Shown: positions 15,913 to 45,976, counted from the first letter of the stretch. The stretch is 64,000 bases of DNA from Candidatus Calditenuaceae archaeon HR02 (GCA_002898395.1 BEHE01000010.1:8092-72091); one strand, 5' to 3'. The notes: generated by a model not told the origin, from the letters alone. Numbers and translations: made by a program.

Positions 15913-16233
15913 CTAGTCTGCGGCCATGGTGCTTTCTGCGTTAAACTCTGAGTCTGTTTTAGCCGCACCAGTATAAACCCTATGACCCACATGGTATTCG
16001 AGCTCATCTCTATACATGTATTTTCGGCAAGTGTGACACCAGTAAAACTCCACTCCCTCGAGACCCGAGACGCCCAGCTCAGCCAAGCCGAAGAACTCGC
16101 ATGGGTCTTCATTTCCAAATCTGATTCTGTCGTAATTTAGGCTGGCCGGGTTGGAGCACGTTCCAACCCCCTCGATGAGGGGGTAGGGGAGAAAGTGTAT
16201 ACAATCACGGCATTGAAATTCCCTTCTAGTCAC
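15913..16233 (-). CDS. small Cys-rich hypothetical protein
   Basis: 106 aa with CRDC...C...C...CHTC spacing suggesting a Zn finger or Fe-S site. No family recognised. Confidence 0.3.
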   Translation of the reverse strand: MTRREFQCRDCIHFLPYPLIEGVGTCSNPASLNYDRIRFGNEDPCEFFGLAELGVSGLEGVEFYWCHTCRKYMYRDELEYHVGHRVYTGAAKTDSEFNAESTMAAD

Positions 16234-16266: not shown

Positions 16267-17334
16267 TCACATTAATGGATTTTGTCCAATATTGTTTATA
16301 GTCCTAAATTCAAAGGATGGTAGGATCAGTTTTACACCACATAACTCGTCAAGTTTCCTTAAAAGGCCGGCCAGCCTCTCGTCCTTGACTAACTGCTCCA
16401 CGTTTTTTACAAGCCTTAGCGTGGTGAGGAGTTTTCGCAACATGCGCGGCCCAAAAGGTGCCATCCTAAGAGACTTGTAGAGGGTCATTCTTTCCTCGAT
16501 GCTGAAGGTTTTCCCATAGTTTTCCTTGAAATAGGTCTCCAACTCAACAAGGAGATGCTGTAAGCATTTCTCCTGACTGCTATAACCGTAGAAGCAGTTG
16601 CGACAGTTTGGTGAAAAGACCTCCCTCATTGGCCCCTGTGGTCTCCTCCGGCTATATCTCACCCGCGCTATATGGTCGGCTTTTTTGAGTCTCTGCACTA
16701 TCTTGTATATGGCCGCTATGCTCAAGCCGTAGGGCCGCATCTTCACATATATGTCCTCCACTGATACGTATATCTCTGTACAAAGGATGGACATGACTAG
16801 TTCCTCACTCCACGTGGGAATGCTTCGAAGTATAAGCTCTAAAGCCTCAACCAAATGTCTACTTCCAGCTCTCACCACTCCACCGTCGATCAGCTTTTCA
16901 CTGTCGAGCACTCTCATTAGAATCTCCCTACATTTTGCGTGGTCTATGCCACTTACTTCTGCAATCATGTCGAGCGGGATATTTTCCCATCCTTTAGCGG
17001 AAGCTATATATAGTGTAGACCAGATGACTCGAACTGTCTCGTTTCTCCAACTTTTCCTAACTATCCATAGAAAATTTCTTAGAGCTTTGAAGACCTCGTT
17101 TTTCTGAATGAGATACGATGTTGGTGAAGTTTTTTGTTTTTGCAGCCCTAGGAGGCGAATGAGGTTTTCCAGAATAATCTCCGCCTCAGAGCGGCTTGGA
17201 AAGAGGAGGAGTCTCTCATCAAACTCCTCGATCCTGTAAAGTGGTGAGTGTATGAACCGATCCTCGCTCCATGCTAATGGAGGATGTAAGGCTAGGAGAG
17301 TCATCAATAGGTTAGCTTGACCCTTGCCCCCCAC
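16267..17334 (-). CDS. hypothetical protein with cyclin-like (TFIIB-core-like) repeat; possible divergent transcription factor
   Basis: 355 aa. WSTLYIASAKGWENIPLDMIAEVSGIDHAKCREILMRV resembles the first cyclin repeat of TFB (AAALYIACR...LDEIAEV...). There is no N-terminal Zn ribbon. CRNC...C appears in the C-terminal third. Confidence 0.3.
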   Translation of the reverse strand: MGGKGQANLLMTLLALHPPLAWSEDRFIHSPLYRIEEFDERLLLFPSRSEAEIILENLIRLLGLQKQKTSPTSYLIQKNEVFKALRNFLWIVRKSWRNETVRVIWSTLYIASAKGWENIPLDMIAEVSGIDHAKCREILMRVLDSEKLIDGGVVRAGSRHLVEALELILRSIPTWSEELVMSILCTEIYVSVEDIYVKMRPYGLSIAAIYKIVQRLKKADHIARVRYSRRRPQGPMREVFSPNCRNCFYGYSSQEKCLQHLLVELETYFKENYGKTFSIEERMTLYKSLRMAPFGPRMLRKLLTTLRLVKNVEQLVKDERLAGLLRKLDELCGVKLILPSFEFRTINNIGQNPLM

Positions 17335-17443
17335 AGTAGTTAGTTGGCTTAAAGACCTATATATTGCTTAATGAAGTCCCATTCAAATATAAGGTATTGT
17401 ATATTGGACCGAGTAGAATATTTAATAGTGTATATAATTATGC

Positions 17444-17746
17444 ATGCCGATAACGATTTGTTGGGCCTTGTCGGCTCAAGCTTTGAAAATATTGCGTGAA
17501 CCGATTAACCTAGCTTTGTTCCGGAGACCGTTGGGGCGGGTCTATGTTATACCTGAGAGGTGTAAAGAGTGTGGGTTTTGCTGGAGTTTCTGCCCCATGG
17601 ACGTTCTCGAGCGGTCTGACGAGTTCAATCCAAATGGATATAGGTATCCTAAAGTCAAGTCAGGGAAGGAAAACGACTGCGTCAATTGTAAGATGTGTAG
17701 CCTGATATGCCCTGAGCTAGCCATCTACACAGTTGAGGTGAGCTAG
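17444..17746 (+). CDS. 2-oxoacid:ferredoxin oxidoreductase delta subunit (2x[4Fe-4S] ferredoxin)
   Basis: CKECGFCWSFCP and CVNCKMCSLICP cluster motifs. The TATA box at 17431-17438 is too close to the annotated ATG, so an in-frame TTG at 17492 may be the real start. Confidence 0.65.
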   Translation: MPITICWALSAQALKILREPINLALFRRPLGRVYVIPERCKECGFCWSFCPMDVLERSDEFNPNGYRYPKVKSGKENDCVNCKMCSLICPELAIYTVEVS

Positions 17747-17750
17747 CAGT

Positions 17751-18896
17751 ATGAGTAGCGGCTTGCCGAGGCCTGGTGTCCACTTCATGATGGGAAACTT
17801 CGCCTGTGTCGAGGCTGCCATACTTGCCGGGTGTAGGTTCTTCGCAGGATATCCCATCACTCCCTCCAGCGAGATCTTCGAGAGGGCTTGTGTAAGGTTT
17901 CCACAGGTCGGAGGGATAGCCGTTGAGATGGAGGATGAGATGGCGAGCGTGGCCGCCCTTATCGGCGCATCTTATGCAGGGGCCAAAGCTATGACTGCTA
18001 CGTCCGGCCCTGGTTTCAGCTTGATGATGGAGAACATAGGATTGGCGTTCATAATGGAGGCGCCAATAGTGATCGTCAACGTTCAGAGGGCGGGGCCAAG
18101 CACCGGAATCCCCACTCTGATAGGACAGGGTGACGTTATGCAGGCTAGATGGGGTTCTCACGGGGACATTGAGACAGTAGTCTACTCTCCCAGCAGCGTC
18201 CAAGAGTTCTTCGACCTAACAATTCAGGCATTTAATACGGCGGAAAGACTCCGCACACCCGTCATCGTGCTGACTGACCAGCTAGTAGGGCTGATGTGGG
18301 AGAAAGTAGTCATTCCATCACCTGAGGAGGTGAAAGTCGTGGAGAGAAAGATTATGGATGCGCGGCTCCTCTCTACGAGGCTACCATTCGACTACACTGT
18401 AGACGTAAATCCAATGCCTATAGTGGGGACGGGCTGCAGAGTAAACATTGACAGCCTCACGCATGATGAGAGAGGCTACCCGACCACATCCCAAGAGATT
18501 TCTGAAAAAATGCTTCGATATCTACTCGGCAAGATTAGGAACCACGCCCGTGAGCTTTGGCTGTATAAGGAATTCATGATCGATGATGCAGAGGTGGTTG
18601 TGGTTGCCTATGGATCTACGGCTAGGTCGGCCTTGAATGCTGTTAAGCAGGCCCGTTCACGGGGGATTAAGGCTGGGTTACTTCAGCTCATCACCCTATG
18701 GCCCTTCCCGAGCGATGTGATTGAGAAGGTAAGCCAGCACGTCAACGCCCTCGTAGTGCCTGAGATAAACTTCGGCCAGCTCGTACACCCCATCAGGGAG
18801 TACGCCAAATGCCCAATCCTAGAGGTTAACTGGGCTCCAGGCAGTCTGATAGAACCGAACGTCATCTTAGACGCCGTGGGGGTGGCTGCGGCGTGA
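17751..18896 (+). CDS. 2-oxoacid:ferredoxin oxidoreductase alpha subunit
   Basis: 381 aa. GNFACVEAAILAGCRFFAGYPITPSSEI is a classic POR/KOR alpha N-terminus. Confidence 0.8.
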   Translation: MSSGLPRPGVHFMMGNFACVEAAILAGCRFFAGYPITPSSEIFERACVRFPQVGGIAVEMEDEMASVAALIGASYAGAKAMTATSGPGFSLMMENIGLAFIMEAPIVIVNVQRAGPSTGIPTLIGQGDVMQARWGSHGDIETVVYSPSSVQEFFDLTIQAFNTAERLRTPVIVLTDQLVGLMWEKVVIPSPEEVKVVERKIMDARLLSTRLPFDYTVDVNPMPIVGTGCRVNIDSLTHDERGYPTTSQEISEKMLRYLLGKIRNHARELWLYKEFMIDDAEVVVVAYGSTARSALNAVKQARSRGIKAGLLQLITLWPFPSDVIEKVSQHVNALVVPEINFGQLVHPIREYAKCPILEVNWAPGSLIEPNVILDAVGVAAA

Positions 18897-19744
18897 CCCA
18901 GGTAGTCAAGGCCCGGCGCCATCCCAGGGATAGCCTATTACGAAGTGAGAGGCTTCCGCACATTTGGTGCCCCGGATGTGGCATCGGCATAATCATGGCC
19001 GCCTATGCAGACGCCATAGAGGCATCAGGTATTCCACCTGAGAAGCATGTCTGCATCTCCGGAATAGGCTGTACTGGGAGGGTTTCCGGCTACATGCATC
19101 TCGACTCATTCCATACGACACATGGCCGAGCCATAGCCTTCGCCACAGGCCTATCTCTTGTGAGGCCTGACCTGGAGGTCACCGTCATCTCAGGTGATGG
19201 GGACATCTGTACGATAGGTGGGAACCATTTGATACATGCTGCTAGGAGGAACGTCGACATCAACGTGATAATGGTAAACAACTTCAACTATGGTATGACG
19301 GGGGGCCAGCACGGCGGTACCACACCCCTCGGAGCAAAGACATACACATCACCTTACGGCAATTTTGAAGCCCCATTCAACATACCCTATCTAGTGGCCG
19401 CTGCAGGAGCCTCGTTCGTGGCTAGATGGACGACCCTACACGTAAGGCAGCTGATCAATGCAATGAAGCGCATGATGAGTGTGGAGGGTTTCTCTTTCAT
19501 TGAGGTCATATCGCCTTGTCCACCCACGTTCGGCGAGTTCAACAACTTTCCTGAAGCCCTCGATATGATGGAGTACTTCAGGAAGTATTCGGTGATAGAC
19601 CATAATGCCGATCTAAGCAAGATAGGCATACGCCTCCAAGGCGAGCCACTGGTTGTCGGAAACTTCGTTGACAAGAGGAGGCCGAGCTACCAGGAGCTTG
19701 TGCAGGAAACTATCAGAAAAGCTGCCGGGAGGGAGAGCGTTTGA
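18893..19744 (+). CDS. 2-oxoacid:ferredoxin oxidoreductase beta subunit (TPP-binding)
   Basis: WCPGCG N-terminal motif and GDGD...IGGNH TPP-binding region. 4-nt overlap with the alpha subunit. Confidence 0.8.
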   Translation: MTQVVKARRHPRDSLLRSERLPHIWCPGCGIGIIMAAYADAIEASGIPPEKHVCISGIGCTGRVSGYMHLDSFHTTHGRAIAFATGLSLVRPDLEVTVISGDGDICTIGGNHLIHAARRNVDINVIMVNNFNYGMTGGQHGGTTPLGAKTYTSPYGNFEAPFNIPYLVAAAGASFVARWTTLHVRQLINAMKRMMSVEGFSFIEVISPCPPTFGEFNNFPEALDMMEYFRKYSVIDHNADLSKIGIRLQGEPLVVGNFVDKRRPSYQELVQETIRKAAGRESV

Positions 19745-20298
19745 GACACGAGGTTAGGATCACAGGGCTAGGTGGCCAAGGGGCCATAACGGCTGGTCAT
19801 ATACTTGGAAGAGCCGCGGCAATATACGGAGACAAGGAAGCAGTAGTGACTGAGGGCTACAGCCCATACATAACCGGCGGCTGGTCGAGAGCCGACGTAA
19901 TAATCTCCGACGAACCCATAGACTACCCGCTTATCACCAAGCTAGACGTCTTAGCCACAATGTATGATGAAGGTTTTGTTCAAAACCTTAGACACGTCAA
20001 AAGCAGAGGTGTAATAATAACCGTGAAAGAGCTAGTCAAACATTCTTCAAAGGATCACAAGGTTTTGCCGATACCTGCCATCGAGGTAGCTGAGCAGTTA
20101 GGAAGAAGGATAGTCGCTAATATCGTGATACTCGGGGCCATAACTGCTGTCTTGGGTACACCACCCCTAGAGTCGGTTGAGAAGGCACTGGCCGACAGGT
20201 TTCCAAAGGCGGTTGAGCTTAACCGCAAAGCTGTACAACAAGGCTACAGCATAGCATCTGAGCTGCTCGCAAGCACAGATGTTTTGGAGGAGAGGTGA
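19741..20298 (+). CDS. 2-oxoacid:ferredoxin oxidoreductase gamma subunit
   Basis: 185 aa. ITGLGGQGAITAGHILGRAA is the gamma-subunit GGQG motif. Confidence 0.75.
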   Translation: MRHEVRITGLGGQGAITAGHILGRAAAIYGDKEAVVTEGYSPYITGGWSRADVIISDEPIDYPLITKLDVLATMYDEGFVQNLRHVKSRGVIITVKELVKHSSKDHKVLPIPAIEVAEQLGRRIVANIVILGAITAVLGTPPLESVEKALADRFPKAVELNRKAVQQGYSIASELLASTDVLEER

Positions 20299-23200
20299 AA
20301 GGGCTGGCAGACGCTGTCCTGGTTATAGGAGGCGGGATAGCGGGGGTTCAGGCATCACTCGACCTAGCCAAGGCCGGTGCCAAGGTCTACCTTGTCGAAA
20401 AAAGTCCCGTGATAGGAGGGCGGATGGCTGCACTAGACAAAAACTTCCCCACCATGGATTGCTCGATCTGTATAGAGGCACCCAAGCTAAGCGAGGTGAT
20501 GCAGAACAAAAACATCAAGGTCTTAACGCTGGCGGAGGTCGTTGAAGCTCGAGGCGAGGCTGGAAACTTTCACGTAAAAGTTGTCCAGAAGCCCCGCTTC
20601 GTCACTGATGAATGTACGAGGTGCGGTGACTGTGTGCCCGCATGCCCAGTCATACTGAAGAACGAGTTTGATGTAGGGATGGGTGCTAGGAAGGCTATAT
20701 ACCTCCCCTTCGACCAAGCCGAGCCGGGGACGTACGTAATAGACATTGAGAACTGTTTAAACAAGCCGCCCAACTATCTGCCCTGTAACAGATGTGTCGA
20801 GGCATGCGGGCCAAAATGCATAGATTTCGAGATGAAAGAGAAAATCCATGAACTGAATGTGGGCGCAATAATAGTTGCAGCTGGCTCGGACCTCTTCGAC
20901 GCCTCATTAATTCCGGAGCTAGGCTATGGAAGACACCCCGACATCCTCACAGCAATGGAACTCGAAAGACTTCTACAATCGAGTGGCCCCTCAAGGGGCG
21001 AGGTCATAAAGCCCAGCAACCACCGCCACCCAGAAAGAGTAGCGTTCATCCTATGCGTGGGGGCTCGCGACAATAGGTTTTATGGTTTCTGTAGCAGGGT
21101 CTGCTGCATGTACAGCATCAAGGAGGCGTTGCAGCTTGTTGACCATGGAATCAAAGATGTCACGGTCTTCTACATGGATATAAGAGCTTATGGAAAAGGC
21201 TTCGACGAGATGTTTGAGAGAGCGAAGAAGAGTGGTGTCAGGTTTATACGAAGCAGGCCTGGAAGAGTTATACCCAATGGTGACCGCATAGAGGTATTCT
21301 ATGAGGACACGACTACTGGAGAGTTAAGGAAAGAAACTTTTGACATGGTTGTCCTTTCAACAGCTCTCGTACCATCAGAAGAGTTAAACAGGTTAGCTAA
21401 AACCTTGGGGATAGAGGTGGGCGAAGATGGCTTCATCAAAGCATATGAAATAGACGGAGACTTCGTCGGGACATCGAGGAGGGGGATATATGTCTGTGGC
21501 TGCGCAGCCGGTCCTAAAGACATTCCTGACAGCGTTACAGAGGCCGGTGCGGCTGCTGCAAAAGCGCTAACCCATCTGACTTCAAGGGTCGTAGAGCCTG
21601 AAATCTTCGAGGAGACCATAGACGCCTCGGGGGAGCCCCGGATCGGTGTATTCATCTGCCATTGTGGCTCCAACATAGCGGGAGTGGTTGATATAAAAAC
21701 TGCCGTTGAGCAGTCCAAGAAAATACCCTATGTAGTGCATGTAGAAGACCAGAAATTCTCGTGCTCTGGAGCGGGTACGAAGCATATAGAGAACGTGATA
21801 AGGGAGAAGAGGCTTAACAGGGTTGTTGTGGCGGCCTGCTCGCCGAAGACTCATAGCCCAACCTTCATGAGAGCCTGTGCCAGGGCTGGACTTAACCCAT
21901 ACCTCCTGGAGATGGCTAACATACGCAACCTTAACTCATGGGTCCACAAAAACCAGCCAGAAGAGGCCACAAGAAAAGCTATAGACCTAATCTCTATGGC
22001 GGTTGCTAAAGTGGTCTTACAAAACCCAATGACCAAGCTATCAACCCCCGTCCTGCAAAAGGTCCTAGTCATAGGAGGGGGTGTGGCTGGGATGACTGCC
22101 GCCACTGCCCTCGCAGAGATGGGATTCGAGACACATCTAGTTGAGAAGGAACATGAGCTGGGCGGTCTCCTCAGATATTTCAGAGAAATTGCTCCATCCG
22201 GCATAGATGCCCAGAGCTTCTTGCAATGGAAGATAAAACAGCTGGAGAAATCAGGTGCCAAGATTCATCTGGGTACAGAGGTAGCCGAGGTAACGGGTTT
22301 CGTCGGAAACTATCATGTTACACTTTCTAACGGAGAGGAACTCGATGTAGGCGCCATAATATTGGCCACAGGAGGTAAGGTTCACGAGCCAAGCTGGCCC
22401 AAAATAGAAGCCGATAAGCCAAGGGTCGCGACGCTACTCAGATACGAGATAGATGGCGTCCCAGAAGACGCTAGAAACATAGTCTTCATAGGATGTGTGG
22501 GTTCAAGAAACATGATCAGGGGATGCTCAAGATATTGCTGCCAAACCATCATTTATCATGCCCTCAAGCTTAGGAGAAGTGGCAAGAACGTCTCAGTAAT
22601 TGTCAAAGATGTCAGGACCTATGGGAGGGGGGCTGAGAAGCTGTATAGGAAAGCCTGCGAAGAGGGTGTGAGGTTTATCAGAGTGGAGACAGAGAAGCCA
22701 ATTGAAGACCTTGTTCGAATAGGAGAAGAAGGCATAACAGTACGAGACATCACAATTGGAGAGACACTAAACATACCCGCAGACTACATCGTTCTGGCCA
22801 CGGCCATAGACCCTCCTGCAGAGATAGCGGCGGCCCAGCAGCTCAGAGTCGCCAAGGACTCGGAGGGATTCTTCCTCGAACTCCACCCGAAGCTGGGGCC
22901 TGTCGAATCGATAACACAGGGCGTCTTCCTCGCAGGTATCGCCCAAGGACCCAAAGATGTTGGGGAGAGCATTTCGCAGGGATTGGCCGCCTCAGCAAAG
23001 GCAGCCGCACTGCTCACATCATCACAGCTTGAGAAAGAGCCCTTAATCCCAATCATAAATCCGCAAAAATGTACAAAATGTATGAGGTGCGCCCAGGTCT
23101 GCCCATATGGTGCGATTAAGGGCGAGCTGAGGAAATGGATAGAGATTATACCGGGCCTCTGCCAGGGATGTGGCGCATGTGTTTCTGAGTGCAATGTTGA

Positions 23201-23681
23201 AGGAGCTATAACAATGCCAGGATTCACGGATGAGCAATTGATGGCGCAAATAGATGCGGCGTTAGCCGAAAACCCAGAAGAGAAGGCGATAGTTTTCGCA
23301 TGTAATTGGTGCAGCTACGCCGGCGCAGACTTGGCCGGCATCCTCAAAATACAGTACCCGCCAACATGCCGGGTTATACGCACAATGTGCTCTGCAAGAG
23401 TCTCGCAGAAGCTTATTCTATACGCATTCAAAAAAGGCGCAGGTGCCGTCTTCGTCACAGGATGCTGGCCACAAGACTGCCACTACAACTATGCCAACCT
23501 CAACACAAAGAGGCGTTACGAACACTGGCTCAAAATAGTACAGGCCAGAAACATAGACCCAAAGAGACTCCAGCTCCACTGGATAAGCGCCGCCGAGGCC
23601 AAGAGATTTGCAGAGAAAATGACAGAGGCCCATGAGGTCGTAATGAGTTTGAAGAAGGATAAGATGCGGGTGGGTGGCTAA
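20295..23681 (+). CDS. hdrA: tandem-duplicated HdrA-like flavoprotein fused to C-terminal MvhD-like domain
   Basis: 1128 aa. Two FAD dinucleotide motifs (VIGGGIAG at aa about 10; VIGGGVAGM at aa about 577). Two HdrA signatures, CVGARD-x8-CSRVCC and CVGSRN-x5-CSRYCC. Several CxxCxxCxxxCP ferredoxin motifs. A C-terminal approximately 130 aa MvhD-like domain (FACNWCSYAGADLAG...). Confidence 0.7.
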   Translation: MKGLADAVLVIGGGIAGVQASLDLAKAGAKVYLVEKSPVIGGRMAALDKNFPTMDCSICIEAPKLSEVMQNKNIKVLTLAEVVEARGEAGNFHVKVVQKPRFVTDECTRCGDCVPACPVILKNEFDVGMGARKAIYLPFDQAEPGTYVIDIENCLNKPPNYLPCNRCVEACGPKCIDFEMKEKIHELNVGAIIVAAGSDLFDASLIPELGYGRHPDILTAMELERLLQSSGPSRGEVIKPSNHRHPERVAFILCVGARDNRFYGFCSRVCCMYSIKEALQLVDHGIKDVTVFYMDIRAYGKGFDEMFERAKKSGVRFIRSRPGRVIPNGDRIEVFYEDTTTGELRKETFDMVVLSTALVPSEELNRLAKTLGIEVGEDGFIKAYEIDGDFVGTSRRGIYVCGCAAGPKDIPDSVTEAGAAAAKALTHLTSRVVEPEIFEETIDASGEPRIGVFICHCGSNIAGVVDIKTAVEQSKKIPYVVHVEDQKFSCSGAGTKHIENVIREKRLNRVVVAACSPKTHSPTFMRACARAGLNPYLLEMANIRNLNSWVHKNQPEEATRKAIDLISMAVAKVVLQNPMTKLSTPVLQKVLVIGGGVAGMTAATALAEMGFETHLVEKEHELGGLLRYFREIAPSGIDAQSFLQWKIKQLEKSGAKIHLGTEVAEVTGFVGNYHVTLSNGEELDVGAIILATGGKVHEPSWPKIEADKPRVATLLRYEIDGVPEDARNIVFIGCVGSRNMIRGCSRYCCQTIIYHALKLRRSGKNVSVIVKDVRTYGRGAEKLYRKACEEGVRFIRVETEKPIEDLVRIGEEGITVRDITIGETLNIPADYIVLATAIDPPAEIAAAQQLRVAKDSEGFFLELHPKLGPVESITQGVFLAGIAQGPKDVGESISQGLAASAKAAALLTSSQLEKEPLIPIINPQKCTKCMRCAQVCPYGAIKGELRKWIEIIPGLCQGCGACVSECNVEGAITMPGFTDEQLMAQIDAALAENPEEKAIVFACNWCSYAGADLAGILKIQYPPTCRVIRTMCSARVSQKLILYAFKKGAGAVFVTGCWPQDCHYNYANLNTKRRYEHWLKIVQARNIDPKRLQLHWISAAEAKRFAEKMTEAHEVVMSLKKDKMRVGG

Positions 23682-24821
23682 ATGTACCGGAGCCTTTCAG
23701 AGCTTTTCACCGACAGGGTATTGGCCGAAAGCATCACAGCCTGCTTCCAGTGCGGAGCATGCACAGCAGCCTGCCCCCTCAACATCTTCGACGGCCTAAA
23801 ACTAAGTCCAAGACAGTTTCTCCGAAGGATGCAACTAGGCCTACCCATAAACATCGAGCCGTATCTCTGCATGATGTGCAAAGCCTGCGAAACAGTCTGT
23901 CCGCGAAATGTTAAAATCACAAAAATAATTCACGAGCTAAGAAAAATCTGGTTTAGGAACAATAGAGTCCCCACGCCTCTCACTCAAGCGCTCTGGAAGA
24001 TCTATGAGGATGGAAATCCGTGGGGCTACCCGTCACGGACAAGAGGCCAGTGGCTCGATAAGCTAGACGTAAACATATCTAAGAAGAAGGGCGAAACACT
24101 CCTCTATGTCGGATGCATCTCATCTTACGATATACGCCTCCAGGGGATAGCAACTGCTATCGTAAAACTTTTACTTAAAGCGGAGGTTGATTTCACAGTT
24201 CTCGGTGATGAAGAGAGGTGTTGCGGGGACCCAGTATACCATACGGGCGAAACAGACTTCTTAGAGGAGTTGATCAACGAAAACATAGCCAAATTCAACT
24301 CCGTGGGTGTGAGAAGAATAGTAGCCCTCTCTCCCCACTGCTACATTATGTTCCGGGATATCTATCCCAAGTATGGAGGTGAATATGAAGTCCTTCACTA
24401 CACAGAGTATCTTGCAGAACTCATAGACTCTGGAAAACTATCAATCGATACACGATTAGAAGCTAGAGCAACCTATCATGACCCATGCTATTTAGGTAGA
24501 TATGCTAAGATATACGAGCAGCCGCGAAGACTGGTAGAGAGCGTTAAAGGACTCTCATTTTCGGAGATGAGCCTCTCAAAAGAACTATCACTCTGCTGTG
24601 GTGGAGGAGGGGGACGGATACTGATGGAGTCAAAACCCGAGGAAAGGCCCTCAAACATAAGAGTCAAACAGGCAGTTGAGACGGGGGCAGAAATCCTGCT
24701 AACTTCGTGCCCCTACTGCATAATAAACTTCGAAGACTCCGCAAAGATCCAGAAAGCGCCCCTCAAGGTAATGGATGTTGCAGAGCTTCTACAAGCTGCA
24801 GCAGGTGGTCAAGATGGGTGA
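23682..24821 (+). CDS. hdrD: HdrD-like protein (2x[4Fe-4S] ferredoxin + two CCG domains; GlcF/HdrBC-fusion type)
   Basis: CFQCGACTAACP and CMMCKACETVCP motifs, then CCGDP and CCGGGGG CCG-domain signatures. Starts immediately after the hdrA stop. Confidence 0.7.
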   Translation: MYRSLSELFTDRVLAESITACFQCGACTAACPLNIFDGLKLSPRQFLRRMQLGLPINIEPYLCMMCKACETVCPRNVKITKIIHELRKIWFRNNRVPTPLTQALWKIYEDGNPWGYPSRTRGQWLDKLDVNISKKKGETLLYVGCISSYDIRLQGIATAIVKLLLKAEVDFTVLGDEERCCGDPVYHTGETDFLEELINENIAKFNSVGVRRIVALSPHCYIMFRDIYPKYGGEYEVLHYTEYLAELIDSGKLSIDTRLEARATYHDPCYLGRYAKIYEQPRRLVESVKGLSFSEMSLSKELSLCCGGGGGRILMESKPEERPSNIRVKQAVETGAEILLTSCPYCIINFEDSAKIQKAPLKVMDVAELLQAAAGGQDG

Positions 24822-25785
24822 GATCTGGTCTTTTGTGGAAGTAGGGCCCGAAGGGATCGAAGCCGTGTCACTGGAGATAATCGGTAAAGCGGCTGAGCTT
24901 GGGGATCAGAGCAACATGAGAACAGCTGCAGTCCTAACGGGGTGGGGAATGGAAAAAATTGTCAAAGAAGTCTCAAGATACCCAGTCGATAGGGTGTACT
25001 ATGTTGAACATGGCGAGTTGGCCTTTTACGATCCGGCGAAACACGCAAATGCCCTACACCAACTGGTTGAAAAGGAGAAACCCGAGATAGTGCTCTTCGG
25101 AGCGACATATAATGGAGTCGACATAGCCGCTAGGTTGGCCATTAGGGCTGAAGCAGGCCTAATAGCTCATGTGACATACCTCGGCATAGACCCCTCAGAC
25201 GGAAGGCTCGTAGGACATGTACCAGGATTCGGTGGAGGCATCGTAGCAGTCTGCAAATGCAGGCCAGGCGTTCTACAGATAGCCACAGTGAGGCCGGGGG
25301 TTTTCGAGAGACCAATCCCAACAGGACATGAGGCGGAGATCCATAGGTTTAGCCCGAAGCTCCACCCAACGAATGGGTGGAGAATCGTCGAGAGACGTGT
25401 AGCGAAGGTGGTGGACATTACGCGGGCTGAAAAAGTCGTCGTGGCGGGCATGGGGACGGGTGGAGAACTCTCCCTCGCTAAGACGCTCGCTCAGAAGTTG
25501 GGCGCACAACTGGCGGTGACAAGGCCTCTAGCAGACTTGGGGCTCGCTCCCAGAGACGTCCAAGTAGGCTCCACTGGCGTCAGCCTAAGATCCAATATAG
25601 CTTTAATCCTTGGAGTGAGTGGGGCATCACACTTCGTCTCAGGAATACGGGATGTGAAAACAGTAATCTCGATCAATATTGACAGAAATGCGCCAATATT
25701 CCAGTTCTCCGACTACTGTGTAGAGGCCGACCTCTTCAAACTAGTCCCAAAGATTATTGAAGAGTTTGAGAAGGAGGGTGCATAA
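24814..25785 (+). CDS. etfA: electron transfer flavoprotein alpha subunit (start at ATG 24814, ATGA-type overlap with hdrD)
   Basis: N-terminal Etf domain, and a C-terminal FAD-binding region (LAVTRPLADLG...) typical of EtfA/FixB. Confidence 0.7.
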   Translation: MGEIWSFVEVGPEGIEAVSLEIIGKAAELGDQSNMRTAAVLTGWGMEKIVKEVSRYPVDRVYYVEHGELAFYDPAKHANALHQLVEKEKPEIVLFGATYNGVDIAARLAIRAEAGLIAHVTYLGIDPSDGRLVGHVPGFGGGIVAVCKCRPGVLQIATVRPGVFERPIPTGHEAEIHRFSPKLHPTNGWRIVERRVAKVVDITRAEKVVVAGMGTGGELSLAKTLAQKLGAQLAVTRPLADLGLAPRDVQVGSTGVSLRSNIALILGVSGASHFVSGIRDVKTVISINIDRNAPIFQFSDYCVEADLFKLVPKIIEEFEKEGA

Positions 25786-26568
25786 ATGGAGATAGTAGTG
25801 TGTGTTAAGGTTGTTCCGAAGGTCGAGCAAGTCAGATTGGACCCTATAACCAAAACCGTAGATAGGACATCTGCTGAGAACGAGCTTAACGACGCTGATA
25901 AAAACGCCGTCGAGGCTGCGCTACAACTAAAAGACAGATATGGCAGCAGGGTCACGGTGCTATCAATGGGGCCGCTATTCTTCGAGCCTCTCCTAAAACT
26001 GTGTGTGGCTATGGGTGCTGACGATGCGATACTCCTCTCCGACAAGGCCTTCGCAGGTGCAGACACCTACGCGACATCATACGTCTTAGCCCAGGCCATA
26101 AAGAGGCTAAGACCGGACATAATCCTCTGCGGCGAAAGCACCTCCGACTCAGGGACTGCCCAGGTTCCTCCCCAAATAGCAGAGTGGCTCGGATACCCGA
26201 ACATCTCCTACGTATCACACATCAGCATAGAGGATAGAGTTGTAGTGGCTAAACGCACAGTAAAAGGCGGATACGAAGTAGTGAAAGTACCATTACCTGT
26301 AGTTATGTCGGTAGAGCTAGGAAGCAACACGCCGAGATTCCCTGACTTTAAGAGAAAGAGATGGGCCGAACGAGAATTCAAAATAACCATATGGACCGCT
26401 AACGACCTCGAGCTAGACCTAAACCTCACGGGCAAGACAGGGTCAAAGACAGAAGTAATAGAGCTCCACCCAATAGCACCACCACAGAGGCTGAGAAAGT
26501 TTCTAGAGGGTTCAGAAGAAGAAAAAGCGAGGGCAATCATAAAAATAATCAGAGAGTCAAAAGGCTAA
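25786..26568 (+). CDS. etfB: electron transfer flavoprotein beta subunit
   Basis: MEIVVCVKVVP... N-terminus and CGESTSDSGTAQV motif typical of EtfB/FixA. Starts 1 nt after the etfA stop. Confidence 0.7.
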   Translation: MEIVVCVKVVPKVEQVRLDPITKTVDRTSAENELNDADKNAVEAALQLKDRYGSRVTVLSMGPLFFEPLLKLCVAMGADDAILLSDKAFAGADTYATSYVLAQAIKRLRPDIILCGESTSDSGTAQVPPQIAEWLGYPNISYVSHISIEDRVVVAKRTVKGGYEVVKVPLPVVMSVELGSNTPRFPDFKRKRWAEREFKITIWTANDLELDLNLTGKTGSKTEVIELHPIAPPQRLRKFLEGSEEEKARAIIKIIRESKG

Positions 26569-41459: not shown

Positions 41460-42284
41460 TCAGAGGTCGCCTTTGGAGAACGTGAGCATCGCTATTAAAG
41501 TGCAGGCGGTTCCGATGGCGATCTGGGAGCCGATAAGCACGGATGCCAGGGTTTCGCCGAACTCCCTCTGGATGAAGGCTCCGAACTCTCCTAGGAGCGA
41601 CATCGAGGGGTCGAAGGTCTTCACAATAACGAGCCTCGAGGCTTGGACGGGGTTGGCCAGCAAGAGGGGGGTGACGTCCAACGGACTTAGGTTGAGGAGG
41701 ATGACCGCCGCCATTAGGACGACCTCATAGACCATCACGAGGCCTATCCAGACTCCGAGGGAGAGGGCCAAGGCCGCGAACCTGCTCCTAACGAGGGAGG
41801 AGATCAGGAGACCTATGCCGGCAAAGGAGTAGGCCAGCACGATCGATGCCCACAGTATACTTAGGTAGATCAAGAGGTCTGTCTCGGAGACGAGGAGCCA
41901 TAGGAGCCAAGACGCGAGGCCGTAGCCCAAGACGATAGCAGCCGATATCGAGACTACATTTGATACTAGTCTGCTGAAGACTATCTCCCACCTTGAGGTC
42001 GGGAGCGAGAGCAGAAATTCCATCGTTCCCTTCTCCCTCTCCGATACTAGTGAGAGAGAAGAGGCTATGACCGCTGCTAATGGGACTGCATAAAGGTTCA
42101 GGTTGATGATCCCGGCTATTGCGGCGCTATAGGCCCTGAAGCCGACCTCTCCGAGGCCTAGGGCCCCTAGATAGGAGAAAGCCGAGCCTAATCCGGCGAA
42201 GGAGATTGAGAAGCCGTAGAGCCACCTGCTGCGGAGCGCGGAGATTAGGTCGCGCTTCAAAAGCAGAAGGACTGTAGCCTTCAT
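41460..42284 (-). CDS. nosY: ABC-2-type permease, NosY-like
   Basis: 274 aa, 6 TM segments, directly downstream of and 4-nt overlapping with the nosF-like ATPase in the nos cluster. Confidence 0.55.
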   Translation of the reverse strand: MKATVLLLLKRDLISALRSRWLYGFSISFAGLGSAFSYLGALGLGEVGFRAYSAAIAGIINLNLYAVPLAAVIASSLSLVSEREKGTMEFLLSLPTSRWEIVFSRLVSNVVSISAAIVLGYGLASWLLWLLVSETDLLIYLSILWASIVLAYSFAGIGLLISSLVRSRFAALALSLGVWIGLVMVYEVVLMAAVILLNLSPLDVTPLLLANPVQASRLVIVKTFDPSMSLLGEFGAFIQREFGETLASVLIGSQIAIGTACTLIAMLTFSKGDL

Positions 42285-43105
42285 CCTCCCACGAACTTCA
42301 ACAGCTCCTCAGCATCAGGCTCCTCTATCCACGCATTCCGGAGATCCTTTCCACTCTCCTGAAGCTCTGTAAGGGTAGCGAAGAGGTCCTCGGTCCTGTA
42401 TGTGGTCCAGCCATTATCACTCTTCACATGTACCTTGTAGACCGGTCTCAGGGTCCTCAGCACGTCCTCTGAATGGTAGACGCCTACCATTCTCCCCTCC
42501 TTCAGGACCACTATCTTCTCGAAGGCCGTGATCAGGCCGCTGATGTTGTGAATGCTTACGATCAGACTCTTCCCCCCTCTCATCATCTCCCTCATCATAT
42601 CGTGAACCGTGTTCCTCATCATGGGGTCGAGGTTGTTGAATGGCTCGTCCATGATTATCAGTCTAGGGTTTCCAATCAGTGAGAGCGCGATGGCGAGCCT
42701 CTGGCGTAGGCCGCCCGAGAGTGACCCGACCGGGCTGTTGACGGTGTCCATCAGCCCGAAAGGGCTGAGGGTCTCCTCCAGCGTGATGTCGACCCCCTTC
42801 ATGTCGGATACGAAGTCAACGAGGTCGTAGACCGTCATCTCCTCGGGGAACCTGACCTGCTGAGGAACGTACCCGACCATTCTCCTGACATCCTTCCCCT
42901 TCTTCCTGACATCGAGACCCATTACCATCACTTCGCCCTCGAAGTCGATTAAACCCAAGATGCATCTTAGGAGTGTGGTCTTGCCGGCACCGTTAGCACC
43001 CATTACCAGCACTGATTCCTTGAGCCCGAGCTCGAGGTAGATCGAATCCAGAGCCACGTTCTCTCTGAAGCGCTTCGTCAGGTTCCTGACCTCTATCGCC
43101 TTCAT
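42281..43105 (-). CDS. nosF: ABC ATPase NosF-like
   Basis: Walker A GANGAGKTT, signature LSGGLRQR and Walker B IIMDEPF. Position between nosD and nosY. Confidence 0.7.
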   Translation of the reverse strand: MKAIEVRNLTKRFRENVALDSIYLELGLKESVLVMGANGAGKTTLLRCILGLIDFEGEVMVMGLDVRKKGKDVRRMVGYVPQQVRFPEEMTVYDLVDFVSDMKGVDITLEETLSPFGLMDTVNSPVGSLSGGLRQRLAIALSLIGNPRLIIMDEPFNNLDPMMRNTVHDMMREMMRGGKSLIVSIHNISGLITAFEKIVVLKEGRMVGVYHSEDVLRTLRPVYKVHVKSDNGWTTYRTEDLFATLTELQESGKDLRNAWIEEPDAEELLKFVGG

Positions 43106-44427
43106 CGCCGGCTCGCCGCGATGGCGGCAGCCACGGGTGGGAGCGTTAGCGCTAAAGCAGCAGCTAGCCAGACTGATGACCCTGCATTGACTGTTGGTCT
43201 GAGGGCATTGGGTGACTTGGCTGGGAACTCGTCAATCGCCTTGACGGAGGATCCGAGCCCGCTTAGCGACCTAGAGGTCTTGATTGCTGAGAATCCAGGT
43301 CCGTAGGCGAAGGCCCAGAGCACCGGCCATCTATCTAAGAGATCTTCGACCGTCGACTTGGCGAGGTACTTCTCGCCGATCTGGAGGCCTCTATCGCTCC
43401 AGAAGTTCCTCATCCAAAGGCTCGTGGCCGAGGGCGTTAGGAGAGATATCTGCTGGGCGTTCTCGACTAGGTCGTTCCTCTCGAAGACCGCCGAAGCCCA
43501 GCCGTCAAATCGTACCCCAACGTTATTGAAGGCTATGACGTTCATCCTGAAGCGAAGGCCACCCTCCCTAGGATATGGGGAGTTGACTACGTGGAGGCCT
43601 ACCGCGTTGCCGACGACCAAGTTGCGCTCGAGATAGACATCGGACGACTCCCTAATGAATATCCCCTCGCTGACCGCAAGGCCTCTATTCTCCCTAACGG
43701 TGTTGTTGGTGACCATCAATCTGAATGAGTACATCAACGCCATGCCCACTAGGTTCCCACGTATCACATTCCGATCGATGACATGGCGCGCCGAGTACAT
43801 CAGGTGTATCCCATATCTTGAGCCGAATATCTCATTCGCCATCACTGTGACATTATATGAGTGGTCTGAGTAGACGCCGTCCTTGACGTTCTCAATCCTG
43901 TTCTCTGAGACCCCAACCCCTACCGAGTACCAAAGGTAAACTCCATGTCCCCTATCGTTGACCGATCTCTCGGGGAAGCTCGTCAGGTGGTTTTTGGTGA
44001 CCTTCACGTCCGTAGAGTTGACGACGTAAATTGCGTGGATCACGTTCTCTATCCGGTTACCAGTAATTGTGACGTTCCTGCTGTTGACGATCTTAATTCC
44101 AGCAGGCTCGAACGCCACATCGGGAAAGGAGTTTATGATCCTGAAGCCCTCGAAGATGACGTCATCCGCCTTGATAACGACCACATCACCAGACCCTTTT
44201 CCGTCTACCACAACGTCACCCGCCCCCTTGAGCGCAAGTGGCTTCCATATCCTTATGGGTCCCGCGTAGATTCCCGGCGGAGCCGGTATCGTCGAGTAAG
44301 GTTCGGCGGAATCGATTAGCGATTGGAGATCGGAGATCTGGTGTTTTTCTGGGTAAGCCATGTCGGGAGCGGACTGGACAAGCAAAAAGGTCGTTAAGGA
44401 TATGAGAAGGAATATTGTGTGTAGCAT
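43102..44427 (-). CDS. nosD: NosD-like periplasmic right-handed beta-helix protein
   Basis: 441 aa. N-terminal signal, and repeated about 22-aa units (N-x-I/V-x-x-N...GI.L...) typical of the NosD/CASH beta-helix. Context between nosL and nosF. Confidence 0.65.
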   Translation of the reverse strand: MLHTIFLLISLTTFLLVQSAPDMAYPEKHQISDLQSLIDSAEPYSTIPAPPGIYAGPIRIWKPLALKGAGDVVVDGKGSGDVVVIKADDVIFEGFRIINSFPDVAFEPAGIKIVNSRNVTITGNRIENVIHAIYVVNSTDVKVTKNHLTSFPERSVNDRGHGVYLWYSVGVGVSENRIENVKDGVYSDHSYNVTVMANEIFGSRYGIHLMYSARHVIDRNVIRGNLVGMALMYSFRLMVTNNTVRENRGLAVSEGIFIRESSDVYLERNLVVGNAVGLHVVNSPYPREGGLRFRMNVIAFNNVGVRFDGWASAVFERNDLVENAQQISLLTPSATSLWMRNFWSDRGLQIGEKYLAKSTVEDLLDRWPVLWAFAYGPGFSAIKTSRSLSGLGSSVKAIDEFPAKSPNALRPTVNAGSSVWLAAALALTLPPVAAAIAASRR

Positions 44428-44431
44428 CGCA

Positions 44432-45034
44432 TCAGCTCGCTTTCCTTAAGGTCACTAAACCGATGGCGATGGCGGCCATCATGAGACCGATTGAGAGCCC
44501 GAAGTAGCTGCGGACCGTAATGTTTGCTATCCTATACTCTCCCAAGAACGGGGGGTCGAAGGGCTCTATCTTGATCGGTGCGTCTGGATGAATCGTGTGC
44601 GTGAACCTGTAGAGCCATATGTAGACGAAAGTGAAGAGGCTGATCACCAATGCTGCCAGAAGGATGAGCAAGACCGGCGCCGACTTCCTCCGTCTGGTTG
44701 AGACGGAGAAGCTGTAGGCTGCAGTCACAGCGATCACAGAGGCGTAGAAGTATGGCAGATAAGATATCTCAGGTACGTGTTCGTTGCCGATCATGCTGAG
44801 CCCAACGTAGTGGTTTATGACGTTGACGTCGTTCACAGCTCCCTGTATGCCGCTGAGTGGATAGATGGTGACCTCAGGCCACTTCTGTCCGAAAAACGGG
44901 GCGTTGAATTGGAAGTGCCAGAGGGGGAAGAAGATAGACATGGCTACGAGAAGAAGCGGTACAGCTGAGGCCGCTGCAAGGATGAATCCGCGCTTTTGCA
45001 TGCACATCACCGGAACCTGCTGAGCATGGACCAA
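44432..45034 (-). CDS. hypothetical membrane protein embedded in nos operon
   Basis: 200 aa, about 4 TM helices with a large extracytoplasmic loop (HYVGLSMIGNEHVPEISYLPYFY). No family recognised. Translationally coupled within the operon. Confidence 0.4.
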   Translation of the reverse strand: MVHAQQVPVMCMQKRGFILAAASAVPLLLVAMSIFFPLWHFQFNAPFFGQKWPEVTIYPLSGIQGAVNDVNVINHYVGLSMIGNEHVPEISYLPYFYASVIAVTAAYSFSVSTRRRKSAPVLLILLAALVISLFTFVYIWLYRFTHTIHPDAPIKIEPFDPPFLGEYRIANITVRSYFGLSIGLMMAAIAIGLVTLRKAS

Positions 45035-45489
45035 AAGTCCATCACCTCTCCTTGAAACCTCTCGGCCAGGTTTTCGGCCTCCCCTCGCGACCCAACGGCC
45101 ACCACGCCGTAGCTCATGGGCGTCCAGAGGTTCTTGGGGTCAGCTAGGACGTAGTAAGCTCTTTGCGCATCCAGTTCCTCCTTCGAGATGTAGTCGAAGA
45201 CCCTGGCATCGGCTACAGTTTTACCGGCAGATAATAGGTCGTTGTAATCGCTCGCGAAGCAGCCTACGTCGTCGTAGAAGCGCCATCTTTGCTCGCCTTG
45301 GAGAAGTAGTCCAGCCGCGAACTCGAGCCTGCTGATGAACATCCCACACCTCCTGCATCTGTCCTCACCCAACCTGATCTGAAGACGTGGAGCCACACCT
45401 ATACGCCACTGCAGCGCGATCGCGGCTGCGGCGCCCACCACGGCGACCCCACCTAGCGCAATAAGAAAGGCCCTGCGCTTCATGCTCAC
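45007..45489 (-). CDS. nosL: NosL-like copper chaperone lipoprotein
   Basis: 160 aa. N-terminal signal, and a CRRCGM motif (C-x2-C-x-M) typical of the NosL Cu(I) site. Position next to nosD. Confidence 0.5.
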   Translation of the reverse strand: MSMKRRAFLIALGGVAVVGAAAAIALQWRIGVAPRLQIRLGEDRCRRCGMFISRLEFAAGLLLQGEQRWRFYDDVGCFASDYNDLLSAGKTVADARVFDYISKEELDAQRAYYVLADPKNLWTPMSYGVVAVGSRGEAENLAERFQGEVMDFWSMLSRFR

Positions 45490-45953: not shown

Positions 45954-45976
45954 GTTATAAATGCGTGGTTAACGTG

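Follow-up and report, generated by a model that had tools for sequence, protein, structure and literature searches.

We describe here a cluster of eight genes from Candidatus Calditenuaceae archaeon HR02 that likely encodes one soluble electron-bifurcating (or confurcating) complex, in which a core of the BamDEF type, as in class II benzoyl-coenzyme A (CoA) reductase, is combined with a 2-oxoacid oxidoreductase (Kor) and an electron transfer flavoprotein (Etf). The cluster lies on the plus strand at positions 17444-26568 of a stretch of 64,000 nucleotides (nt) (GCA_002898395.1, BEHE01000010.1:8092-72091), which was analyzed as a whole and is called the window; all positions are counted from its first letter. 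We counted eight genes, not nine as given in a preliminary description of this DNA, and the host, placed there in the Thermoprotei, belongs to the Nitrososphaerota, order Caldarchaeales. The earlier assignments of open reading frames (ORFs) and domains were borne out by our ORF calls and by Pfam and NCBIfam, as follows.

17444-17746, plus strand: korD, delta subunit, 100 amino acids (aa), two [4Fe-4S] motifs; Pfam Fer4/Fer4_7, best NCBIfam match OGOR delta subunit
17751-18896, plus strand: korA, alpha subunit, 381 aa; Pfam POR_N and PFOR_II, NCBIfam NF006412
18893-19744, plus strand: korB, beta subunit, 283 aa, binds thiamine pyrophosphate (TPP) and the proximal [4Fe-4S] cluster; Pfam TPP_enzyme_C, GDGD motif
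19741-20298, plus strand: korG, gamma subunit, 185 aa; Pfam POR, best NCBIfam match NF006323 (gamma subunit)
20295-23681, plus strand: hdrA, HdrA-HdrA-MvhD fusion ORF, 1128 aa; by Pfam two HdrA units that resemble thioredoxin reductase (TrxR) and bind flavin adenine dinucleotide (FAD), Fer4 domains and a C-terminal FlpD/MvhD domain
23682-24821, plus strand: hdrD, HdrD-like protein of the EtfD/BamD type, 379 aa, putative Etf-docking electron wire; Pfam Fer4_8 and two CCG domains
24814-25785, plus strand: etfA, large Etf subunit (ORF open from 24775); Pfam ETF and ETF_alpha
25786-26568, plus strand: etfB, small Etf subunit; Pfam ETF

The junctions comprise one gap of 4 nt (korD/korA), three overlaps of 4 nt at korA/korB, korB/korG and korG/hdrA (GTGA, TTGA and GTGA, respectively), direct abutment (0 nt) at hdrA/hdrD and at etfA/etfB, and an overlap of 8 nt between hdrD and etfA (ATGGGTGA). 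This overlap would grow to 47 nt with an etfA start at 24775; the likely start is 24814, behind a Shine-Dalgarno-like GGTGGT. Tight translational coupling, as proposed before, is evident from this set, which replaces the earlier list of distances (4 nt, 0 nt, an ATGA overlap and 1 nt). None of the eight proteins contains a transmembrane segment.

We gathered 20 genomic loci, 80 metagenomic loci and five targeted contigs and searched them with all eight window proteins; 58 loci were evaluable, with flanking sequence of 3.2 kb or more on either side. All eight genes occur in identical order in 52 of these 58 loci. Of the six that deviate, three are artefacts of an hdrA intein that moved the search window, two are distant outgroups (39-40% identity), and one has no match to etfB. 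The order etfA before etfB, singled out in the preliminary description, is real and constant across the family. Relatives of the 1128-aa protein are about 1130 aa long, are 53-60% identical across lineages, and stem from Caldarchaeales/Aigarchaeota, Nitrososphaerales, Thermoplasmata, an Asgard archaeon, Rokubacteria/Methylomirabilia, Elusimicrobia, and Armatimonadota; none of the inspected cluster members came from a cultured host. Overlapping or abutting gene calls, including korG/hdrA, are also present in the loci of Nitrososphaerales, Thermoplasmata, Rokubacteria, Armatimonadota, and Kariarchaeaceae. Clustering of the flanks of the 52 loci yielded no conserved ninth gene; it returned only a second, unrelated set of 2-oxoacid:ferredoxin oxidoreductase (OFOR) genes (20 loci) and a 355-aa protein (18 loci) with a small Cys-rich partner (9 loci), all of which are limited to Nitrososphaerota lineages.

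Correlation of the KorA distance matrix with the matrices of HdrD, EtfA, and EtfB is strong (r = 0.89-0.92), and the same test gave r = 0.91 for KorA-KorB and r = 0.89 for EtfA-EtfB, which are true subunit pairs. Because the KorA distances track HdrD and Etf as well as true subunits track each other, Kor is no chance neighbour, and the eight genes move and evolve as one unit, also between the two domains of life. The single, tightly coupled unit postulated earlier is thus supported by its junctions, by the conserved order, also where synteny in other genomes had been named as a check, and by the correlated distances of its Kor and Hdr/Etf parts. One might still suppose that kor and hdr/etf operons are merely adjacent or co-transcribed and that their products act separately via free ferredoxin, as OFORs normally use free ferredoxin and as the assembly of the products is something that we infer. 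This is most improbable, however, given that korG/hdrA overlap or nearly abut in every lineage examined, that the arrangement survives transfer between domains with correlated evolutionary distances, and that the other OFOR sets nearby are unrelated (27-30% identity).

The 1128-aa protein provides the core of the putative complex and consists of five parts.

20295-21614, plus strand: HdrA unit 1, aa 1-440, TrxR-like FAD domain with an inserted two-cluster ferredoxin domain; putative bifurcating flavin site
21633-22049, plus strand: HdrA N-terminal domain, aa 447-585, one [4Fe-4S] cluster; Cys455, 457, 490, and 515 invariant
22050-23039, plus strand: HdrA unit 2, aa 586-915, second TrxR-like FAD domain without the bifurcating hallmarks; GGGVAG FAD motif
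23040-23264, plus strand: C-terminal two-cluster ferredoxin domain, aa 916-990; Cys926-936 and 956-966 invariant
23277-23651, plus strand: MvhD/FlpD [2Fe-2S] adaptor, aa 995-1119; Pfam FlpD E = 2e-41, MvhD chains of the PDB E = 1e-33

The solved HdrA of Methanothermococcus (PDB entry 5odc, chain A) matches the whole fusion with E = 1e-183. Residues 3-378 of the fusion align to residues 141-515 of 5odc_A (FAD domain and inserted ferredoxin domain), residues 447-618 to 3-174 (N-terminal domain and start of the second FAD domain), and residues 852-989 to 510-649 (end of the FAD domain and C-terminal ferredoxin domain). The aligned segments are permuted in the manner of a fused HdrA dimer. Cys56/Cys59, Cys254/266/270/271, and Lys276 of unit 1 align with HdrA Cys194/197, Cys386/399/403/404, and Lys409. 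The cluster held by Cys254, 266, 270, and 271 adjoins the FAD (CxGxRD...CSxxCC motif), and the inserted ferredoxin domain has its ligands at Cys107-117 and 154-171, all invariant. Unit 2 has Tyr754 in the position of Lys276 and no CxxC; its cluster ligands Cys734, 744, 748, and 749 are invariant, as are Cys1003, 1006, 1032, 1057, and 1062 of the MvhD domain. In an alignment of 16 diverse members, 35 of 35 presumed Fe-S ligand cysteines as well as Lys276 are invariant, a set that serves seven [4Fe-4S] clusters and one [2Fe-2S] cluster. Degenerate HdrA modules had been named earlier as an observation that would speak against a bifurcating complex, and these modules are not degenerate. Invariance of all ligands of the eight clusters argues that all three electron ports are in use. 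The fusion is predicted to bind two FAD in addition to its eight clusters, of which seven are [4Fe-4S] and one is [2Fe-2S], with the FAD of unit 1 as the only bifurcation site.

The FAD, the lysine at its N5, the CxxC pair, and the cluster motifs of unit 1 are common to HdrABC-MvhAGD and Fdh-Hdr (5odc, 7bkb, 8rvu), in which a bound donor is attached through MvhD and ferredoxin reacts at the inserted ferredoxin domain, an arrangement that we also propose for the complex described here. In contrast to the methanogenic complexes, the HdrA pseudo-dimer is intramolecular, a single HdrD-like protein with a degenerate site replaces HdrBC, no heterodisulfide is expected, and the donor would be a TPP enzyme instead of a hydrogenase or formate dehydrogenase. 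Some close relatives (Caldarchaeum-type loci L005, L013, L010, and L024) have an intein of about 475 aa in hdrA (Pfam intein splicing and LAGLIDADG). It sits right before Cys59, within the Cys56-x-x-Cys59 pair by the putative bifurcating FAD; the window copy is free of it.

The nearest precedent for such a core has been described for Bam[(BC)2DEFGHI]2 of Geobacter metallireducens. BamE is a permuted fused HdrA dimer with a bifurcating FAD (Lys280) in unit 1, a non-bifurcating FAD in unit 2, and clusters E1-E7; it is joined by the MvhD-like adaptor BamF and by the HdrD-like BamD, which takes the high-potential electrons (bioRxiv 10.64898/2026.04.10.717634). Judged from this published description and not from sequence alignment, the window proteins resemble BamE and BamD, and Lys276 is the counterpart of BamE Lys280. 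Both systems have a fused HdrA dimer in which one FAD is bifurcating and the other is not, together with seven [4Fe-4S] clusters and the MvhD-type [2Fe-2S] cluster. Unlike in Bam, however, MvhD is of normal size and fused to the HdrA dimer, the Etf is encoded in the operon and has a bifurcating-like sequence (BamOP is an ordinary ETF), and no redox module other than a four-subunit Kor is present. The tungsten-containing BamBC (AOR-type) and the NADH/ferredoxin module BamGHI (HydABC-like) are absent from the window cluster and from the flanks of the 52 loci; the cluster does not encode a benzoyl-CoA reductase.

The HdrD-like subunit has M. smegmatis EtfD as its best PDB relative (9ojn_A, E = 1.7e-50), and methanogen HdrB and HdrC match weakly. 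Mapping of the published EtfD ligands onto the 9ojn_A alignment placed the first CCG site at Cys145...Cys180-Cys181...Ser217-x-x-Cys220 and the second at Cys269, 305, 306, 343, and 346. Across 53 family members, the second site is invariant and so are Ser217, Pro218, and His219, whereas Cys220 is found in 38 and Cys145 in 49 members. In canonical heterodisulfide reductase, both non-cubane clusters must be intact. In EtfD, FadF, DgcB, and BamD, the first cluster is altered or missing, the second, named D2 in EtfD and D3 in BamD, is completed by His and shielded, and electrons pass to or from an ETF (PMC13083937; bioRxiv 10.64898/2026.04.10.717634). The window protein shows the latter pattern, i.e., an altered first site, an intact second cluster with its His, and etfAB directly downstream, and, with Ser217 invariant and Cys220 and Cys145 variable, it lacks the catalytic site of HdrB and HdrD. 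It shares with EtfD (9ojn; PMC13083937), EMO, FadF, and DgcB two cubane clusters, two CCG domains, a His-completed non-catalytic non-cubane cluster, and the link to EtfAB. Differences from EtfD are the absence of the transmembrane haem b domain and of the disordered C-terminal tail, in which it resembles the soluble BamD, and the form of the first CCG site (CCG...SxxC here, CTG...CxxC in EtfD); its electrons would go to or come from HdrA instead of menaquinone. The maximal hydropathy over 19 residues is 1.52, with no transmembrane segment and no membrane haem b/quinone domain.

As the first CCG site is degenerate, the second site and His219 are invariant, and EtfD is the closest relative, we read the HdrD-like subunit as a putative wire that docks the flavin domain of the operon's own EtfAB; a role in disulfide or quinone reduction is unlikely. 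In the preliminary description, electrons from Kor and, via a bifurcating Etf, from NAD(P)H were thought to reduce a disulfide or a quinone-like acceptor at the CCG domains of HdrD. The presence of two such domains agrees with this, and TfrB, a true thiol/disulfide enzyme, shows an overall similarity as high as that of EtfD. Nevertheless, the proposal has become very doubtful: the first CCG site lacks one Cys in 53 of 53 sequences and two further ligand cysteines vary as given above, the second cluster owes its last ligand to His219, like the non-catalytic D2 of EtfD, and there is neither a membrane anchor nor a haem domain for a quinone.

The Etf subunits score best with solved Etfs of the bifurcating type, at 116-182 bits for EtfA (72-91 bits with non-bifurcating Etfs) and 135-171 bits for EtfB (49-92 bits). 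The Arg of the RPxFGG motif in the large subunit, beside N5 of the bifurcating FAD, is essential for bifurcation, and R140 variants of T. maritima EtfABCX lost bifurcation and trapped a flavin semiquinone (PMC10734219). EtfA of the window has VPGFGG in this place; the Val is present in 52 of 53 members, and the Arg in all five solved bifurcating Etfs. EtfB keeps Arg27, Asn35, and Asp38 (N-P-x-D segment) and the G-x-x-G-S-(P)-T-x-V loop near the second flavin site. Arg27, Gly216, Gly219, Ser220, and Val224 are invariant in the family, position 222 is Thr or Ser, and Pro and Gly29 occur in 23 and 28 of the 53 sequences, respectively. At the second FAD site, which the preliminary description had suggested to check, the motifs of bifurcating (group 2) Etfs are thus conserved in part: those of the small subunit are incomplete, and the Arg of the large subunit is missing. 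This Etf is a distinct subgroup by sequence; it probably has two flavins and is unlikely to bifurcate on its own, because the essential Arg is replaced by Val. Two bifurcating HdrA modules plus a bifurcating Etf, as envisaged before, are therefore not what the operon encodes, with the HdrA hallmarks restricted to unit 1. The top-scoring solved relatives, i.e., Bcd-EtfAB (5ol2), CarCDE (6fah), Ldh-EtfAB (7qh2), EtfABCX/FixABCX (7koe), and A. fermentans Etf (4kpu), share the small-subunit Arg and, in part, the second-flavin loop. They differ in the large-subunit Arg, for which the cluster family has Val, in the gene order (etfA then etfB here), and in the partner, which here is an HdrD-like Fe-S protein instead of an acyl-CoA dehydrogenase, lactate dehydrogenase, or FixCX.

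The Kor module is a complete four-subunit Kor/Oor-type set by Pfam and NCBIfam, with alpha, beta, gamma, and delta subunits encoded together. The eight cysteines of KorD (40, 43, 46, 50, 79, 82, 85, 89) and Cys26, 29, 60, and 209 of KorB are invariant in the 53 family members, and the GDGD TPP motif is present in KorB. KorA matches NF006412 ('2-oxoacid:acceptor oxidoreductase subunit alpha') with 501 bits (cut-off 411 bits), and its second-best NCBIfam match is the alpha subunit of 2-oxoglutarate synthase. The nearest substrate-specific models are of 2-oxoglutarate types, all scoring under their own cut-offs. In a Thermoplasmata metagenome-assembled genome (MAG; L022:6787-7479), KorD has 230 aa, with an N-terminal winged helix (Penicillinase_R-like) ahead of the dicluster ferredoxin. 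The BamF adaptor of benzoyl-CoA reductase was reported to contact its donor module via a winged-helix motif (bioRxiv 10.64898/2026.04.10.717634), and the winged helix of the Thermoplasmata KorD may be a docking element rather than a regulator.

It could be argued that these proteins form a simple linear wire, i.e., a non-bifurcating 2-oxoacid oxidoreductase that reduces NAD+ or Etf like phenylglyoxylate:NAD+ oxidoreductase and stands in for 2-oxoacid dehydrogenase complexes. OFORs with an added NAD+-reducing flavoprotein exist, NCBIfam models of NADH-dependent phenylglyoxylate dehydrogenase match weakly, the Etf lacks the bifurcation Arg, and many archaea have no 2-oxoglutarate dehydrogenase. 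We nonetheless regard a linear wire as highly unlikely, as it would not need all of the ligands of both ferredoxin domains and of MvhD, the CxxC pair, and Lys276, which are invariant across phyla.

We return to bifurcation at unit 1 and propose the following wiring, in which physical assembly, the docking place of Kor, NAD(H) as partner of Etf, and the direction of flow are modeled on the canonical Hdr topology. Kor would be the bound donor at the port formed by MvhD and the C-terminal ferredoxin domain, a place that is taken by hydrogenase, formate dehydrogenase, or BamGHI in known systems. Electron pairs from 2-oxoacid and CoA (about -500 mV) would pass through KorD to the C-terminal ferredoxin domain and MvhD and on to the bifurcating FAD. 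On the high-potential branch, electrons would run from the cluster by this FAD through the HdrD-like protein to the alpha-FAD of Etf, its second flavin, and NAD+ (about -320 mV). On the low-potential branch, the second electron would be driven uphill and, by way of the inserted ferredoxin domain, would reduce free ferredoxin, whose potential is -500 mV or lower. The overall reaction would be 2 oxoacid + 2 CoA + NAD+ + 2 Fd(ox) -> 2 acyl-CoA + 2 CO2 + NADH + 2 Fd(red) (Fd, ferredoxin), reversible in principle. With Val in place of Arg, Etf would simply interconvert two single electrons and a hydride and would not act as a further site of bifurcation.

This wiring is favored because only diffusible ferredoxin is needed beyond the products of the operon, because it makes thermodynamic sense (donor at -500 mV, acceptor at -320 mV, ferredoxin at or below -500 mV), and because it explains why a bifurcating-type Etf fold is combined with the loss of the Arg. 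A Kor donor combined with an ordinary ETF (about 0 mV) as acceptor was rejected on thermodynamic grounds: either both branches would be downhill or the low-potential branch would have to be absurdly low. The proposed reaction resembles that of Nfn in that the electrons of a mid-potential two-electron donor are split between NAD+ (downhill) and ferredoxin (uphill). The Nfn proteins are, however, unrelated to those described here, and the donor here would be a 2-oxoacid via a TPP enzyme. While a BamDEF-like complex with Kor and Etf appears likely as such, the specific reaction, in which the electrons of the 2-oxoacid are divided between ferredoxin and, through HdrD and Etf, NAD+, is proposed tentatively, as a serious possibility that falls somewhat short of probable.

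Several points weigh against this proposal. Association and activity of the subunits, including the docking site of KorD, are deduced from gene and protein sequences; the second Etf site may hold FAD or AMP, Etf may or may not bind NADH, and EtfB of the window departs from the RxGV and SPT consensus (RTSA, GSKTEV). In Bam, it is the low-potential branch, not the MvhD port, that bears the substrate module, and the ETFs shown to dock to EtfD and BamD are of the ordinary high-potential kind (about +16 mV) and have no link to NAD (bioRxiv 10.64898/2026.04.10.717634). Neighboring genes for an acyl-CoA dehydrogenase, thiolase-like proteins, and an acyl-CoA synthetase would fit an Etf that is fed by acyl-CoA dehydrogenase. 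A plain Kor already reduces ferredoxin, and the benefit of the proposed reaction is a matter of argument. Finally, many hosts have aerobic or denitrifying features (nosZ in the window), which is unusual for HdrA-type enzymes.

Two alternatives take up these points. In a topology closer to Bam, Kor would be attached to the inserted ferredoxin domain, on the branch of low potential, and act as a 2-oxoacid synthase. The FAD would receive its electrons from a mid-potential donor encoded outside the operon, e.g., reduced ferredoxin at the port of MvhD and the C-terminal ferredoxin domain; one electron would be lifted to Kor for the reductive carboxylation of acyl-CoA, and the other electron would flow through HdrD and Etf to the respiratory chain. 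This arrangement has the closest structural precedent, with the substrate module at low potential and an ETF as high-potential sink. An AMP-forming acyl-CoA synthetase is encoded near the cluster here and in Thermoplasmata and Rokubacteria loci, and respiring hosts with a relatively oxidized ferredoxin pool could need a boost to about -500 mV. Yet it requires a further donor, and the flanks of the 52 loci showed no additional conserved gene. Moreover, Kor-type enzymes are usually oxidative in heterotrophs, which is what the window looks like, and the bifurcating-Etf-like features would be left unexplained. We consider this topology unlikely, but deserving of attention.

The second alternative is confurcation in beta-oxidation or amino-acid catabolism: Etf reduced by an acyl-CoA dehydrogenase (about 0 mV) and Kor (-500 mV) would meet at the HdrA flavin, and pairs at about -250 mV would leave via MvhD to a diffusible acceptor, by which the Etf electrons would be lifted above the level of menaquinone. 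Immediately upstream and divergent are genes for an acyl-CoA dehydrogenase, two thiolase-like proteins, a DUF35 protein, and an acyl-CoA synthetase. Such pathways have one dehydrogenase step for each Kor step (1:1), which would fit, and the partners of EtfD and BamD are ordinary ETFs. These beta-oxidation neighbors are, however, confined to close relatives (L001, L003, L010) and do not extend to the whole family. About -250 mV is too high for typical ferredoxins as acceptors, and the MvhD port has no NAD(P) site; unit 2 has a GCVGSR cluster motif where the dinucleotide fold would be. Confurcation of this kind is, in our judgment, distinctly unlikely.

The likely bifurcating complex has looser relatives. 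A Chloroflexia MAG (L018:476-14433) encodes korD, korA, a fused korB-korG, a 1095-aa HdrL/NfnB(GltD)-like flavoprotein, a Fer4_20 protein, a 906-aa Pyr_redox_2 protein, MvhD, an HdrD-like protein, and HdrA-MvhD, but no Etf, in whose place stand the NfnB/GltD-like NAD(P)H modules; by analogy, this variant suggests that pyridine nucleotide is a partner of Kor-Hdr systems. Tandem HdrAs of Desulfobacteraceae (L015 and L016; about 42% identical) were considered as BamE and ruled out by their non-bam neighbors. These are, in L015:712-9236, an 893-aa MvhD-containing protein, a membrane NarI-like/2x Fer4 (Hme-like) protein, and an HdrB-like CCG protein and, in L016:267-6130, Fer4_22 and NAD_binding_1/DHODB-type (Flx-like) proteins. 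They look like further uncharacterized uses of the fused-HdrA core, which, in view of the L018 and Desulfobacteraceae arrangements, is therefore modular.

Bifurcation by HdrA is known from methanogens, sulfate reducers, and anaerobic degraders of aromatic compounds, with hydrogenase, formate dehydrogenase, or NADH modules as donors. All four building-block families of the cluster are known, and so is, from the 2026 preprint, the principle of an HdrA dimer combined with MvhD, HdrD, and an ETF. We found no description of a kor-hdrA-hdrD-etfAB cluster in the searchable full-text literature; reviews of HdrA and of Etf classification may mention it. In this literature, the coupling to Kor, an Arg-less Etf in the operon, and broad spread in respiring lineages were likewise not found. 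The earlier statement that no such complex had been described hence holds for the Kor-coupled version, but not for the core of fused HdrA dimer, MvhD, HdrD-like protein, and ETF, which has its Bam relative of 2026. Current labels of these genes are 'heterodisulfide reductase subunit A', 'hydrogenase iron-sulfur subunit', or 'cinnamate reductase', the last being the database annotation of the HR02 protein to which the 1128-aa fusion is 100% identical.

It is tempting to speculate, although we hold this somewhat less likely than not, that the cluster represents a third widespread route of 2-oxoacid metabolism beside free-ferredoxin OFORs and NAD-linked dehydrogenase complexes. Such a Kor-HdrA-HdrD-Etf machine would conserve energy and split, or in reverse merge, electrons between ferredoxin on one side and NAD(H) or Etf on the other; its hosts would be archaea and bacteria from six or more phyla that respire and are in part aerobic. 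The BamDEF-type core would be a general plug-in module for bifurcation instead of a specialty of aromatic-ring reduction. If true, this would change the modeled flow of carbon and electrons around 2-oxoglutarate or other 2-oxoacids in Aigarchaeota, non-ammonia-oxidizing Thaumarchaeota, Thermoplasmata, Asgard archaea, Rokubacteria, and Armatimonadota. It would also be a second, independent case of an ETF-docking HdrD, structurally seen only in 2026, and would provide a natural Arg-to-Val variant of a bifurcating-type Etf, handy for probing what makes an Etf flavin bifurcate.

Upstream of korD, the following features were noted.

17335-17443, no strand assigned: divergent intergenic region with a probable promoter, an AT-rich TATA-like stretch about 25 nt before the korD ATG, as read from the sequence
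16267-17334, minus strand: 355-aa protein, divergent neighbor, possibly a regulator (a guess); no Pfam or NCBIfam match
15913-16233, minus strand: 106-aa Cys-rich protein, CxxC...CxxC, zinc-ribbon-like

A motif of the GGAGG/GGTG type precedes each internal gene of the operon by 5-15 nt, and inspection of the region upstream of korD revealed no Shine-Dalgarno-like motif there; korD without and internal genes with such motifs probably reflect the customary pattern of archaeal leaderless operons. A scan for sigma-70 promoters and intrinsic terminators, inapplicable to archaea, returned sites no more often than in shuffled sequence, and tRNA and Rfam scans of the window gave no matches. Homologues of the 355-aa protein flank the cluster in 18 of the 52 loci. 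In Caldarchaeales they lie upstream in divergent orientation, and in Nitrososphaerales (L021, L045-L049) they follow the cluster on its own strand; together with the 106-aa protein, they may form a regulator pair.

The G+C content is 0.50-0.53 in the cluster (window positions 18000-26000) and 0.43-0.47 in its flanks, which, together with 55-60% identity between archaeal and bacterial copies, is compatible with horizontal spread. Directly upstream and divergent in the window are the genes for the acyl-CoA dehydrogenase, the two thiolase-like proteins, the DUF35 protein, and the AMP-forming acyl-CoA synthetase (acs). Within a few kb of the cluster, 20 of the 52 loci (L002, L005-L014, L017, L021, L045-L049, and others) have the second OFOR set, which is 27-30% identical to the Kor of the cluster and, in Nitrososphaerales, is of the two-subunit type with PFO_beta_C. 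This position is occupied by acs and genes for a methyltransferase, acyl-CoA dehydrogenase, and thiolase-like proteins in the window and in the loci most closely related to it. A link to quinones through genes for formate-dehydrogenase-like, Fer4_11, and NrfD proteins upstream of korD in Rokubacteria was rejected, as this arrangement was seen in no other locus. The window also contains a nitrous-oxide reductase cluster on the minus strand at 41460-48028, with a nosZ-like gene (683 aa), NosD, and neighbors, so that the host probably respires nitrous oxide. An Armatimonadota locus (L104:1-3593) has nosZ and nosD at most 2 kb upstream of kor-hdr-etf, for which coincidence or a shared habitat is the probable explanation.

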